From NCBI GenBank assembly GCA_949295025.1, contig CASFJK010000009.1, positions 10,038-74,037 on the forward strand: a stretch of 64,000 nt of DNA. Direction: 5' to 3'. Numbering within the stretch: the stretch's first letter is position 1; every line of letters starts with the position of its first letter. Made by a program: the position numbers and the translations under genes. The notes beneath the pieces were generated by a model. The model was not told the DNA's origin. It saw only the letters and a program-made list of their open reading frames with translations, and did not search any database. Below are positions 24,595 to 26,640 of the stretch, in pieces. This DNA comes from an uncultured Pseudomonadota bacterium. GTDB taxonomy: Bacteria > Pseudomonadota > Alphaproteobacteria > RF32 > CAG-239.

Positions 24595-26640
24595 ATGAAA
24601 CAGAGTCATAAAATTTTAATTTTTACATTGTTTTGTTGTCTTTCTCTGGTCACTTTGAGCGGAGATGCTTATGCTGCTGATGTTTTGGAGACAGTAAGAG
24701 ATAAGGCTGCTCATTTCATTAAAAATTTAAGACCTCTTATTTTTATTCTGGCTGGTTTCGGTTTGATAGGCTTTGCCTTTGGTGCAATTTTTGGAAAAAT
24801 TAGTTGGAAGTGGTTTGCTAATATTGCTATTGGTTTGTTCCTTGTGGCAAATGTGGGATTGTTTATTGACTATTTTGCTAGTAAAAGCGGCGCTAAAGGA
24901 ACTTATTCAGAAAAATTAGGATATGGCAAATATTTGGATGCATCAGGTTCATATACGGCTACTCCCGGATCATCTTCAGATCCATCCTCTCAAAAGGATC
25001 CCGGTGCCGGAGGAGATGGAAAAACTGACAATAGTACAAGCGATGATATGTCAGACAACTGTGTTCCAGGAACCGGTACAGGATGTAGTAGCAGTGGAAA
25101 AGAGTCTGGAAGCGATGCTGTTGTAAATACCAAAGAAGGTTGTTCTGCTGCAGGTGGTTTATGGACGGGAACAAGTTGTGCATTGCCTGAAGAAGAAACT
25201 CCTGATGAGGCCCCCCTTCCGGGAACCGGCTTTGAAAATGTCTATGACGCCGATGGAGGTATGTTGGATGGAGTTGTTGTTACAGCCCCAGATTTAAGTG
25301 GAAACAAACAGTCTAATTTAGGTGATTTGGCTTCAAAAGAAGGATTTAATTTACCGACTATCGGATCAGGAAGTAGTAGTTCCAGTTCTACTCAAAGCAA
25401 TTTAAAAGTTCCTTCCGGCGAACAAATGAATGATTTGGCGGAAAAAGCCAAAGAACAATATAATTCAACCGGAAAAGTGGATATGAACCAACTTTTGCGA
25501 GATGAAGTTGCTGCTGGGCGTATGACTGAAGAACAAGCAGCACAAGCCGGAGCTATGTTTACAGCGGCAGCAAATTCTAAAGGAGGAAATGTTGGTGCTG
25601 CTATTGATGATGTACTAAAAGAATCAAAAGAGCAGATGGCAGAAGAAAAAGCAGCTGCTAATAATGATATGGCTTCTTCGGTAGGAAACATAGGAAATTT
25701 GTATGATCAAATAATAAATGAAGAAACGCCTGATGAAGAGCCGCTTCCAGGAACCGGTTTTGAGCAACAAGAAGCTGAATGTAGAGCTCAAGGAGGCTAC
25801 TGGATTAATAATACATGTATGCCGATAATAAATGAAGAAACTCCAGATGAAGAACCACTTCCGGGTACAGGATTTGAATATGATGTAGATGGTGGTGAAA
25901 TAGGTGAAGTTGTTGTTACCGGTAAGGATTACAGTGCAGAAAAACGCAATTGTTCTCTGACGGGAGGTACATGGAATTCATCAAAAATGTCCTGCGAGTA
26001 TGAGGAATTGAATTCTCCGATAGATGTGTCTAATTCAAATAACGGAAATAAATCTAATATTCCATCTCATGAGCAGATGAATGCATTGGCTCAAAGAGCA
26101 AAAGAACAGTACGATTCTTCTGGAAAAATAGACATGAATCGATTGCTCCGAGAAGAAATTGCTGCTGGTAGAATGACAGCCGAACAAGCTGCATGGGCAG
26201 GAGGTATTTTTACTGAAGTGGCAAACTCTAAAGGAGGAAACGTTGGAGCAGCCATAGATGAGGTTCTTAAGAGTTCAAAACAACAAATGGAAGAAGAAAA
26301 ATCCTCTTCGAACAACTCTAATAGCACGGTTAACACCCCGGTTGTTTCTGATAAAACAGGAGAAAGTCAAGCAAATACTTCCGGAACTACTGAAGAAAAA
26401 GAAGAAGGCGGTGGAGTAAGTCATTATGCTTGCCTGAAGCTCGGTGGAACATGGGATGATGCTAGCGGTACATGTAAAGGTGTTAGCGCTTCGACATCAA
26501 GTAATGATGAAGATGAAGAAGATGCGCCTATAGCTGTTGAGGATGGAGAAGATGATGAAGATACAGGTATTAGCCATTATGCTTGTAATAAAAAAGGTGG
26601 CCAGTGGATAAATGATAAATGCGTATTACCTGGGCAATAA
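24595..26640 (+). CDS. VirB2-like N-terminal pilin domain fused to a ~580-aa repetitive, acidic, Cys-motif-bearing extension
   Basis: aa 1-98: signal peptide plus LIFILAGFGLIGFAFGAIFGKISWKWFANIAIGLFLVANVGLFIDYF (VirB2 core). The remainder contains 3x ETPDE(E/A)PLPGTGFE, 2x an ~81-aa helical module and 5x C-x3-GG-x-W-x(4-6)-C. Confidence 0.7.
   Translation: MKQSHKILIFTLFCCLSLVTLSGDAYAADVLETVRDKAAHFIKNLRPLIFILAGFGLIGFAFGAIFGKISWKWFANIAIGLFLVANVGLFIDYFASKSGAKGTYSEKLGYGKYLDASGSYTATPGSSSDPSSQKDPGAGGDGKTDNSTSDDMSDNCVPGTGTGCSSSGKESGSDAVVNTKEGCSAAGGLWTGTSCALPEEETPDEAPLPGTGFENVYDADGGMLDGVVVTAPDLSGNKQSNLGDLASKEGFNLPTIGSGSSSSSSTQSNLKVPSGEQMNDLAEKAKEQYNSTGKVDMNQLLRDEVAAGRMTEEQAAQAGAMFTAAANSKGGNVGAAIDDVLKESKEQMAEEKAAANNDMASSVGNIGNLYDQIINEETPDEEPLPGTGFEQQEAECRAQGGYWINNTCMPIINEETPDEEPLPGTGFEYDVDGGEIGEVVVTGKDYSAEKRNCSLTGGTWNSSKMSCEYEELNSPIDVSNSNNGNKSNIPSHEQMNALAQRAKEQYDSSGKIDMNRLLREEIAAGRMTAEQAAWAGGIFTEVANSKGGNVGAAIDEVLKSSKQQMEEEKSSSNNSNSTVNTPVVSDKTGESQANTSGTTEEKEEGGGVSHYACLKLGGTWDDASGTCKGVSASTSSNDEDEEDAPIAVEDGEDDEDTGISHYACNKKGGQWINDKCVLPGQ
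25411..25653 (+). repeat. Coding internal duplication, copy 1 (PSGEQMNDLAEKAKEQY...EEKAA)
   Basis: An ~81-codon module repeated at 26062..26304 with high amino-acid identity (e.g. AAGRMT.EQAA.AG..FT..ANSKGGNVGAAID.VLK.SK.QM.EEK). Confidence 0.8.
26062..26304 (+). repeat. Coding internal duplication, copy 2 (PSHEQMNALAQRAKEQY...EEKSS)
   Basis: See copy 1. The mirrored antisense ORFs in the track (25392..25691 and 26091..26336) reflect the same duplication. Confidence 0.8.

Follow-up and report, generated by a model that had tools for sequence, protein, structure and literature searches.

[quoted passage not shown] To our knowledge, pilin precursors of the TrbC/VirB2 family (PF04956) are about 70-150 aa long and carry no extra domains. 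The Trw system of Bartonella has multi-copy arrays of variant TrwL and TrwJ, and Anaplasma reportedly carries VirB2 paralogs in multiple copies. Among other pili, FimH and PapG (chaperone-usher) and CofB and TcpB (type IVb) are two-domain tip adhesin pilins that occur in few copies alongside a small major pilin. In RP4 TrbC, 27 + 4 residues are removed from the C-terminus and TraF cyclizes the protein; R27 TrhA is also cleaved C-terminally (PMC13434634). For another T4SS subunit, VirB6-4 of Anaplasma phagocytophilum, giant repetitive C-terminal extensions are reported (PMC7648143).

Three tandem virB2 paralogs at the head of a T4SS operon

The stretch of DNA analyzed here, which we call the window, is 64 kb long and contains a chromosomal T4SS operon headed by three tandem virB2 paralogs. 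The third of these, ORF 24595..26640 (plus strand, hereafter VirB2-3), is followed on its 3' side by a VirB3-like ORF, VirB4, two VirB8, VirB9, VirB10, and VirB11. The genes at the head of the operon are as follows.

23750..24097, plus strand: virB2 paralog 1, 115 aa, canonical size; Pfam TrbC E=6.4e-12, 46 bits
24133..24576, plus strand: virB2 paralog 2, 147 aa, divergent, with a C-terminal hairpin; Pfam TrbC E=7e-5, 23.4 bits, below the gathering cut-off
26821..27111, plus strand: VirB3-like ORF of 96 aa with two hydrophobic segments, identified solely from its position and size; overlaps the start of virB4
27101..29533, plus strand: VirB4 ATPase; Pfam CagE_TrbE_VirB E=2.5e-11

Paralog 1 is likely the major pilin and shares 42% identity over 84 aa with the hairpin of paralog 3, and a phmmer hairpin match is found at the position of paralog 2 in every locus. 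The VirB3-like ORF has no match in Pfam or NCBIfam. VirB9 of this system carries a SPOR domain, and VirB10 is 1692 aa long with beta-flower repeats. Neither a relaxase nor VirD4 was detected by Pfam within the window. A plasmid or conjugative origin was considered and rejected; positions 23700-29600 have no blastn match in PLSDB, and the flanking genes are of chromosomal type.

VirB2-3 is encoded by an intact reading frame of 681 aa with an AGGAG Shine-Dalgarno sequence 7 nt 5' of the ATG. The initial annotation described it as a VirB2 pilin domain fused to a modular extension of about 580 aa, and the in-frame fusion of a VirB2 hairpin to such an extension is genuine. Its N-terminus belongs to the TrbC/VirB2 family as proposed, with a PF04956 match at aa 2-85 (E=4e-9) whose 37 bits exceed the gathering cut-off of 27.9. 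The N-terminal portion is organized as follows.

24595..24675, plus strand: Sec signal peptide, aa 1-27 (...GDAYA/AD putative cut), with a basic n-region, hydrophobic core, and A-x-A
24676..24876, plus strand: VirB2 hairpin, aa 28-94, comprising a helix, TM1, the basic loop GKISWKW, and TM2, from Pfam, hydropathy, and AF2
24877..25104, plus strand: neck, aa 95-170, with L-G-Y-G-x-Y-L, closing in a C156-x7-C164 loop (CVPGTGTGC), defined by conserved residues

Residues A25 and A27 of the signal peptide are invariant in 23 homologs, and cleavage presumably follows A27. Hydropathy peaks at aa 44-70 and 73-96 coincide with AF2 helices at 27-66 and 71-94, so that the signal peptide, two hydrophobic helices, and short positively charged loop expected of the VirB2 family are all present. 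The gene likewise occupies the expected place at the head of the virB operon, directly 5' of virB3/virB4, an arrangement shared by 44 related loci. The small, single-domain architecture of the family (mature pilin about 65-80 aa) is absent from this 681-aa protein, which continues for about 585 aa past TM2. The invariant columns of paralog 3 are concentrated in the hairpin, where the loop GKISWKW is unchanged between species. The neck that follows has its own set of invariant or near-invariant residues (G99, L108, G109, G111, Y113, Y120, G125, P130, Q133, C156, P158, G159, G161, and C164), and its L.YG.Y motif also occurs in short family members and in those with the hairpin at mid-protein.

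Modules of the extension

Beyond the neck, the extension is built from short two-Cys motifs (Cys-knots), linkers with an ETPDE sequence, and helical modules.

25141-25179, plus strand: Cys-knot 1, CSAAGGLWTGTSC, aa 183-195, motif in sequence
25195..25284, plus strand: linker 1, ETPDEAPLPGTGFE, with the short linear motif DADGGMLDGVVVT; disordered in AF2
25405..25680, plus strand: helical module 1, aa 271-362; DNA repeat, jackhmmer domain E=2.9e-46, AF2
25723..25818, plus strand: ETPDE linker 2 with Cys-knot 2, a 38-aa unit of strain-variable copy number
25780-25818, plus strand: Cys-knot 2, CRAQGGYWINNTC, aa 396-408, motif in sequence
25837..25995, plus strand: ETPDE linker 3, DVDGGEIGEVVVT motif, and Cys-knot 3, a cassette common to two other T4SS-locus proteins of species L003
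25951-25995, plus strand: Cys-knot 3, CSLTGGTWNSSKMSC, aa 453-467, motif in sequence
26056..26331, plus strand: helical module 2, aa 488-579; DNA repeat, jackhmmer, AF2
26431-26475, plus strand: Cys-knot 4, CLKLGGTWDDASGTC, aa 613-627, followed by an acidic linker
26584-26622, plus strand: terminal Cys-knot 5, CNKKGGQWINDKC, aa 664-676, motif in sequence

All five C-x3-GG-x-W-x4-6-C loops listed in the initial annotation are present with exactly the sequences given there. A six-frame translation of the whole 64-kb window contains no further copy of the motif, and just 2 of 20,000 shuffles of the extension contained at least one. For the first knot, AF2 gives a beta-hairpin together with a short helix (pLDDT about 65-73). 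The mature protein has 12 Cys, which group into six successive pairs with a spacing of 8-14 residues. The three copies of ETPDE.PLPGTGFE start at aa 201, 377, and 415; two of them are followed by a stretch of the D.DGG..VVVT type, as had been noted, the second of which (DVDGGEIGEVVVT) departs from the pattern given in that a G replaces D/E. The linkers are acidic and rich in S and G as described, the extension being 12% G, 11% S, 10% E, and 7% D with a net charge of -58.

The two helical modules had been put at about 81 aa; both exist, at a size of about 90 aa. They form a 256-nt direct repeat (25409-25664 and 26060-26315) with 72% nucleotide identity, and the corresponding protein segments (aa 271-362 and 488-579) are 67% identical. 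Both are helical in AF2 with pLDDT of 80-87, within a model of the whole protein that is poor (mean pLDDT 55). A tandem-repeat finder returned just trivial short arrays; the modules are dispersed repeats and are not arranged head to tail.

The extension (aa 99-681) matches no known periplasmic protein family. Against Pfam it gave sub-threshold noise only (TetR_C_7 at 20.4 bits, cut-off 22, 0 stretches, and a Cap17-like entry), and there were 0 matches in NCBIfam and, by phmmer, 0 among PDB sequences. The best PDB match of a helical-module profile had E=0.19. A Foldseek comparison of the AF2 model with the PDB gave a best E of 2.8, a weak negative because the model is of low confidence. Throughout Pfam, NCBIfam, PDB sequences, and PDB folds, no similarity of the modules to any adhesin or lectin was found. 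When 1.84e9 cluster representatives were searched exhaustively with phmmer, 12 matches only emerged, almost all of the same family. A hairpin-only database search by word index gave just 14 candidates (12 with E <= 1e-5), all of 110-154 aa, too narrow a set for a census of the family. In the literature, which we searched with incomplete coverage, we found neither this T4SS nor a VirB2 bearing a large extension described. As far as we have found, a large modular extension on VirB2 is apparently new, and the design recurs among related gut bacteria.

Conservation and turnover in gut Alphaproteobacteria

We compared 47 sources, the window and 46 genome loci from uncultured gut Alphaproteobacteria, and exactly three tandem VirB2-hairpin ORFs are present in 44 of them. 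Both the paralogy and the synteny of the locus are conserved. The most conserved hairpin is that of paralog 1, with a mean identity over 44 genomes of 0.72, and paralog 3 reaches 0.63. In paralog 3 the segment K-I-S-W-K-W-F-A-N-I-A is invariant even between species whose extensions are unalignable. This degree of constraint far exceeds the needs of a generic anchor. Paralog-3 proteins range from 153 to 2058 aa across sources, and in a sister clade the hairpin lies at mid-protein with extensions of up to ~1200 aa on either side. The number of knots per member varies from 0 to 13, that of helical modules from 0 to 2, and that of linkers from 0 to 5. The shortest consist of the hairpin, neck, a linker, and one terminal knot; since even these carry it, the terminal knot is probably the ancestral head. 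An even number of Cys residues is found in all 44 paralog-3 proteins counted and in all 26 tabulated database homologs, a signature of extracytoplasmic proteins.

The modular makeup of the extension changes from genome to genome. Relative to a strain of the same species (L049/P0001), the window shows a single indel, of 114 nt and in frame, which corresponds to one 38-aa module, and the dN/dS of the extension is 0.18 in the same comparison; the extension is under purifying selection. These observations also bear on whether two genes, for a pilin and an unrelated secreted protein, were fused by a frameshift or misassembly. Nothing but the unusual length speaks for such an event. No frameshift or stop separates the pilin core from the extension, and the frame is uninterrupted in many independent assemblies (ENA, Logan, and NCBI) as well as in other species; the conserved neck spans the junction, and the dN/dS and the in-frame character of the sole indel are those of a real gene. 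We consider an artefact to be refuted for practical purposes, its probability being negligible.

Parts of the extension are also found in other proteins. Two further exported proteins are encoded at the T4SS locus, and their orthologs in L003 carry the Cys-knot/ETPDE/VVVT cassette.

31583..32338, plus strand: exported all-helical T4SS-locus protein; L003 ortholog P0024 (449 aa) has the cassette
33452..34207, plus strand: second exported T4SS-locus protein; L003 ortholog P0025 (514 aa) has the cassette

Both P0024 and P0025 bear signal peptides, and the window cassette (25837..25995) is 64% identical to theirs. Within L003 the P0024 and P0025 copies show 100% identity to each other across 544 nt and share about 83% nucleotide identity with virB2-3. 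As to a VirB5 assignment for these cassette-sharing proteins, there was no PDB profile match to VirB5 and no Pfam match among all members of their alignments, and an A2-versus-A3 profile comparison returned a probability of 1.6%. The AF2 model of the VirB5 candidate is all-helical at a pLDDT of 55, and no Foldseek match to it had an E below 2. An N-terminal F-x-[IF]-P-[AV] is what we take to be the sole VirB5/TrbJ-like feature of these proteins (31583-32338 and 33452-34207). The helical module has a wider distribution, being present also in P0081 and P0083, both of which lack a signal peptide and a hairpin, so its use is not limited to pilus proteins. The genes for P0081 and P0083 sit on contigs of 4-6 kb, too short to show their genomic surroundings.

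Possible roles of VirB2-3 and comparison with known systems

We tentatively read VirB2-3 as a minor, pilin-like subunit of the T4SS that would display a variable surface or adhesin array stapled by disulfides, a reading whose chances we would place close to even, on the lower side. VirB2-3 would be exported by Sec, and its pilin-type hairpin would insert in the inner membrane, which would put the C-terminal extension outside the cytoplasm, where the six Cys pairs could form disulfide loops; we count the even, paired Cys as an extracytoplasmic signature in favor of this model. The conserved hairpin suggests that the T4SS machinery handles the protein as a pilin, in which case it would be incorporated into the pilus. 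A 580-aa appendage on every subunit of a homopolymer is sterically implausible, and we therefore assume sparse or tip incorporation; VirB2-3 would probably be sparse or near the tip in a filament composed mainly of paralog 1 (115 aa). The acidic, mostly disordered extension would then be surface-exposed and project outward. Its Cys-knots of helix plus beta-hairpin may, with the two orphan helical domains, provide a contact or adhesion surface for a target cell, with specificity diversified through the gain, loss, and exchange of modules. Such modular turnover is common among surface or interaction proteins. In the conjugative pili whose structures have been solved, both termini of the pilin face the solvent (R388 pilus preprint, doi 10.1101/2024.03.04.583355), so that anything added at the C- or N-terminus would point outward. 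Several observations count against pilus display, namely, that the modules have no detectable adhesin or lectin similarity, that the helical module also occurs outside pilins (P0081 and P0083), and that the cassette-sharing proteins were not matched to VirB5-like tip proteins.

The initial annotation had offered adhesin- or lectin-like display, a cleaved product, and a plain membrane anchor as options. The last of these is disfavored because the hairpin, with its invariant loop, is conserved across species to roughly the same degree as in the canonical paralog, and the data as a whole favor an extracytoplasmic, rapidly diversifying interaction surface. The extension could nevertheless stay in the periplasm. 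The VirB2-like hairpin would then dock the protein to the inner-membrane complex of the T4SS, and the extension, never exported further, would serve as a scaffold, spacer, or regulatory tether. The default topology leaves the extension in the periplasm, and VirB9 (SPOR) and the 1692-aa VirB10 with its beta-flower repeats are likewise enlarged with envelope-facing domains. Moreover, LDGVVVTAP and IGEVVVTGK resemble the BtuB TonB box, DTLVVTAN (PMC13253070). The VVVT motif is present in 10 of the 46 paralog-3 proteins, an enrichment of about 8-fold relative to other ORFs, lies within AF2-disordered regions, and directly follows the signal peptide in two giant paralog-3 proteins; DGG-x-L-x-E-V-V-V-T could thus represent TonB-box-like beta-strand docking sites for TonB or a TonB-like VirB10. 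However, this likeness concerns a motif of just 5-8 residues, about 1200 aa per side of the hairpin would be very large for a periplasmic tether, and module indels between strains together with cassette exchange fit an exposed interaction surface better. On balance we find a purely periplasmic role unlikely.

The cleaved product corresponds to a prepilin whose C-terminal propeptide is removed after insertion, so that a core of ~70 aa polymerizes and the fragment either acts as a soluble factor, periplasmic or secreted, or is broken down. The C-terminal cleavage of RP4 TrbC and R27 TrhA sets a precedent (PMC13434634), and the conserved neck of ~70 aa right after TM2 could house a processing site. 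Set against this, a Pfam scan of 44 window ORFs, which included all T4SS-region ORFs of at least 90 aa judged likely to be genes, found no Peptidase_S26 (TraF-like) match; known propeptides are about 30 aa, as compared with 60-1200 aa here; and in the sister clade long pieces would have to be removed on both sides of the hairpin. Purifying selection and the conservation of paired Cys indicate that the extension has a function of its own, possibly exerted after cleavage. We regard the propeptide explanation as quite improbable.

If VirB2-3 is a displayed, pilin-like subunit, the pilin fold itself can act as a display or anchoring platform, which would constitute a new route for T4SSs to diversify contact specificity and a natural template for engineered cargo display on conjugative-type pili. 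A bolder version, which we consider rather doubtful, holds that VirB2-3 is the first natural cargo-bearing T4SS pilin, located near the tip, with swappable disulfide mini-domains for target recognition and with cassettes recombining among surface subunits. It would then be the T4SS counterpart of FimH- and CofB-type tip adhesins, and the 2058-aa versions of the sister clade would be the largest pilin-family protein known. Group B colicins engage the TonB-type energizer of a target bacterium, and, speculatively, the TonB-box-like DGG-x-L-x-E-V-V-V-T tail motifs might engage such an energizer, belonging either to the bacterium itself or to its target. The locus adds a very elaborate, lineage-conserved T4SS in widespread, uncultured Alphaproteobacteria of the mammalian gut, and its Cys-knot and ~90-aa helical module, both orphan domains, merit structural work.

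With Agrobacterium tumefaciens VirB2, RP4 TrbC, and R388 TrwL (PF04956), VirB2-3 shares the signal peptide, two helices, short basic loop, and position at the operon head; it differs in having, in addition, a conserved neck of 70 aa and modules totaling about 510 aa, and its relatives reach 2058 aa. RP4 TrbC and R27 TrhA are closer in being VirB2-family proteins with a C-terminal piece past TM2 (PMC13434634), but their pieces are about 30 aa long and removed, whereas that of VirB2-3 is 580 aa, modular, and under selection. VirB6-4 is similarly a core alphaproteobacterial T4SS subunit, reported to have a long, repetitive, strain-variable C-terminal extension (PMC7648143); VirB6, however, is a polytopic channel protein, and the repeats described there are unrelated to the modules of VirB2-3. 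FimH/PapG and CofB/TcpB combine a pilin-type assembly domain with a larger binding region, a design that VirB2-3 would share with them by analogy of mechanism only; no relationship to VirB2-3 was detected in sequence or fold, and the assembly machineries differ. The multi-copy pilus subunits of Bartonella (TrwL/TrwJ) and the VirB2 paralogs of Anaplasma likewise represent tandem VirB2 paralogs in chromosomal T4SSs of host-adapted Alphaproteobacteria that do not look conjugative, and are presumed to vary in their surface-exposed parts. Whereas those paralogs vary in sequence at normal pilin length, VirB2-3 varies by appended modules amounting to hundreds of residues.

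VirB2-3 and its operon

The gene for VirB2-3, the third virB2 paralog, reads openly over 681 codons (24595..26640, +), with an AGGAG ribosome-binding site 7 nt upstream of its ATG. The initial annotation had placed a pilin core at its N-terminus, and residues 2-85 do match Pfam TrbC/VirB2 (PF04956; E=4e-9) with 37 bits, against a curated cut-off of 27.9 bits. A signal peptide, basic and hydrophobic and closing with AYA/A, can be read from the sequence, as can hydrophobic helices at aa ~44-70 and 73-96 with the basic loop GKISWKW between them, and AlphaFold2 (AF2) places the hairpin helices at 27-66 and 71-94. 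VirB2-3 is thus a TrbC/VirB2 family member by sequence, topology and gene position, and the sole family expectation from which it departs is that of a small single-domain protein. Its predicted topology puts the extension outside the cytoplasm.

Features of the T4SS operon and the adjoining pilus cluster
23750-24097, +: virB2 paralog 1, 115 aa, Pfam TrbC 46 bits
24133-24576, +: virB2 paralog 2, 147 aa, Pfam TrbC 23 bits (sub-threshold)
24595-26640, +: virB2 paralog 3 (VirB2-3), third of three tandem hairpin genes
29612-30541: exported coiled-coil protein, 309 aa, directly 3' of VirB4, no Pfam match
37903-38661 and 39009-39746: VirB8, duplicated
39765-41528: VirB9, ending in a SPOR peptidoglycan-binding domain
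41525-45256: 1243-aa protein with many beta-flower (PF21785/PF21784) repeats
45260-50338: VirB10, 1692 aa, TrbI domain at aa 1372-1562 and many beta-flower (PF21785/PF21784) repeats
10761-21621, minus: type IVb (R64 thin-pilus or bundle-forming-type) pilus cluster, upstream of and back-to-back with the T4SS operon
11844-12440 and 12456-13016, minus: PilS/bundlin-like pilins of that cluster

Downstream of VirB2-3 follow, in order, a VirB3-sized two-TM ORF, VirB4, five signal-peptide-bearing ORFs without a family match, a 1228-aa ORF, the two VirB8, VirB9, the 1243-aa beta-flower protein, VirB10 and VirB11; the machine is unusually decorated. The predicted mature N-terminus of ORF 29612-30541 is FGIPAIDIQALVQ (starting FGIPAIDIQ...), and we take the mature N-termini of this product and those of 31583-32338 and 33452-34207 to resemble VirB5/TrbJ starts; ORF 32335-33504 has a weak NCBIfam TrbJ match (E=0.009). 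Pfam scanning of the window ORFs gave no relaxase, VirD4 or TraF-like peptidase, PLSDB held nothing similar to 23700-29600, and the outer flanks carry ordinary chromosomal genes, so that the system looks like a chromosomal, heavily elaborated T4SS rather than a conjugative element. The type IVb cluster further contains T2SSF, two T2SSE ATPases, a PilO-like protein, a secretin and TcpQ, and is adjoined by a row of Ser/Thr protein kinase, PP2C phosphatase and VWA-domain protein genes (6615-9519, minus). Elsewhere, a 1067-aa protein (58432-61635, minus) matches PF21277, a T6SS VgrG3-like C-terminal domain, over aa 104-302 (E=1e-23); this may be a toxin or enzyme domain directed at peptidoglycan, here without a T6SS around it.

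Composition of the extension

The modular make-up proposed for the extension was borne out in every motif. Five C-x3-GG-x-W-x4-6-C knots start at aa 183, 396, 453, 613 and 664, and three ETPDE.PLPGTGFE linkers at aa 201, 377 and 415; the two helical modules correspond to a 256-nt direct repeat (25409-25664 and 26060-26315; 72% nucleotide identity, 67% at the protein level). Both D.DGG..VVVT stretches were also located, with the earlier pattern one residue class off for the second, DVDGGEIGEVVVT:

25246-25284, +: first DGG..VVVT copy
25882-25920, +: second DGG..VVVT copy

The knot motif is absent elsewhere in a six-frame translation of the window and arises in 2 of 20,000 shuffles of the extension, a region with a high content of G, S, E, D and N and a net charge of -58. 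Within it the 12 cysteines fall into six neighbouring pairs, 8-14 residues apart. AF2 predicts confident helices for both ~90-aa modules (pLDDT 80-87), a short helix plus beta-hairpin for each knot (pLDDT ~65-74) and disorder for the remainder.

The extension has no significant match in Pfam, NCBIfam or PDB sequences, nor does the helical-module profile in PDB sequences; the AF2 model likewise gave nothing significant against PDB folds, a weak negative because its mean pLDDT is only 55. An exhaustive phmmer search with aa 175-681 against 1.84 billion cluster representatives returned only 12 hits: family members, P0024 (a cassette-bearing cluster discussed below), P0081 (L047:424-3405; 993 aa, helical module twice) and P0083 (L048:425-4207; 1260 aa, module once). 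The last two lack a signal peptide and a VirB2 hairpin and could be T4SS substrates. Separately, both lie on short, low-GC contigs, each 3' of a gene fragment whose product presumably resembles an aminoacyl-tRNA synthetase C-terminal end.

Family members combine these parts in different numbers: 0-13 knots, 0-2 helical modules and 0-5 ETPDE linkers. Besides the hairpin, the shortest paralog-3 proteins have a neck (L-x-Y-G-x-Y), an acidic/Gly linker, a small Cys loop and a single knot at the end. This suggests that the knot is the ancestral head and that VirB2-3 is an expanded form of such a protein. Cysteine numbers after the signal peptide are even in 44/44 paralog-3 ORFs and in all 26 tabulated database homologs, the signature one would expect of a disulfide-bonded extracytoplasmic protein.

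TonB-dependent receptors carry a TonB box directly after the signal peptide. The motif DGG-x-[LI]-x-[EG]-V-x-V-[TS]-[GA], which sits in disordered regions and is ~8-fold enriched in paralog-3 proteins, lies right behind the signal peptide in two giant paralog-3 proteins (L034, aa 77; L043, aa 41) and resembles in sequence the TonB box of BtuB, DTLVVTAN (PMC13253070). This likeness, with DGG-x-[LI]-x-E-V-x-V-T-G recurring, and the default topology would fit a periplasmic tether or scaffold, a role that we consider somewhat unlikely for VirB2-3.

Relatives, module turnover and cassette exchange

A whole-protein search found ~25 TrbC-domain proteins (385-812 aa, all unnamed and metagenomic), along with ~40 proteins of 850-1180 aa sharing only the hairpin. 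Scanning one genome per GTDB species yielded 46 loci, all in uncultured Alphaproteobacteria MAGs from human, mouse, deer and rabbit guts. A phmmer search with the hairpin, covering every ORF of the 46 loci and of the window (47 sources), showed three tandem hairpin ORFs, no more and no fewer, in 44. Paralog 1 spans 111-182 aa counted from the first start codon (mostly 111-135) and paralog 2 120-310 aa. Paralog 3 reaches 2058 aa and is shortest, at 153 aa, in L045, which like one other locus has four hairpin ORFs. Members of the window's clade have the paralog-3 hairpin at the N-terminus; those of a sister clade have it at residues ~310-870 of giants of 814-2058 aa, where a coiled-coil region of 300-850 aa, led by a signal peptide, precedes it and a long C-terminal region of low complexity follows:

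L013-L015, L017, L018, L020-L027, L029-L037, L039-L041, L043: giant mid-hairpin paralog 3 as third hairpin ORF
L024:7931-14107: example giant, 2058 aa

The giants match Pfam TrbC only below threshold, and their layout recurs in independently called database proteins, P0033, P0026, P0060 and P0075 among them. These extensions on both sides of the hairpin, and the lack of a TraF-like peptidase among the Pfam-scanned window ORFs, speak against removal of the extension as in RP4 TrbC, which provides the precedent (PMC13434634); we regard such removal as quite unlikely.

Mean identity of the hairpin core across 44 genomes is 72%, 68% and 63% for paralogs 1, 2 and 3, with an essentially invariant K-I-S-W-K-W-F-A-N-I-A stretch. 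Within the window, the hairpin of paralog 1 shares 42% identity with that of paralog 3 over 84 aa. That the hairpin is constrained while the adjoining extensions are unalignable argues for a specific T4SS job of the paralog-3 hairpin, beyond mere membrane anchoring.

On a contig from a second strain of this species (L049, which encodes P0001), the gene differs by one in-frame 114-nt indel, exactly one knot plus ETPDE linker unit, and by eight amino-acid replacements, 8/8 in the extension. The extension dN/dS is 0.18 (20 differences), so that the extension is coding sequence under constraint and not a product of drift; an artefact we hold to be extremely improbable. In the L003 species the orthologs of window ORFs 31583-32338 and 33452-34207 reach 449 and 514 aa, compared with ~240 aa in other species:

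L003:17802-19151: cassette-bearing ortholog of window 31583-32338
L003:20364-21908: cassette-bearing ortholog of window 33452-34207

The additional C-terminal part of both is the knot/ETPDE/DGG..VVVT cassette of virB2-3. The last 544 nt of these two genes are 100% identical, against ~83% to L003 virB2-3, a sign of recent duplication or of gene conversion within the operon, and both architectures recur as independent protein clusters (P0024, 9 members; P0025, 5). Three different exported proteins encoded at one T4SS locus thus share and exchange a cassette, which suggests that they act at the same place on the same partner.

Possible role and comparison with known systems

Structures of conjugative pili show the loop between the two helices turned towards the lumen and both termini exposed to solvent (doi 10.1101/2024.03.04.583355). 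Were the hairpin polymerised, N- or C-terminal additions would project from the filament. Because a filament built of one subunit type, each copy carrying 580 extra residues, is implausible and the canonical, better conserved paralog 1 is kept in every genome, the most economical model is one in which paralog 1 would be the major pilin and paralog 3 a minor, perhaps tip-proximal subunit whose knots and helical domains would form a variable array for contacting a target. We hold this model tentatively, at a little under even chances. Our literature search, whose coverage is incomplete, turned up no account of either a VirB2 carrying a large appended segment or this T4SS. VirB2-3 has a robust architecture that recurs among relatives and that T4SS biology would not lead one to expect; the function proposed for it is an inference.

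Among published cases, three come nearest: variant VirB2 paralogs, an extended VirB6-4 and processed prepilins. Anaplasma and Bartonella have tandem variant VirB2 paralogs, which are of normal length, unlike the long paralog 3 here. In function, the nearest analogues of VirB2-3 would be FimH and CofB, tip pilins with two domains that belong to other pilus classes, with no homology detected. Anaplasma VirB6-4 has giant repeat extensions, but on another subunit (PMC7648143). RP4 TrbC and R27 TrhA are C-terminally processed prepilins whose tails are short and removable (PMC13434634), whereas the VirB2-3 extension is ~580 aa.
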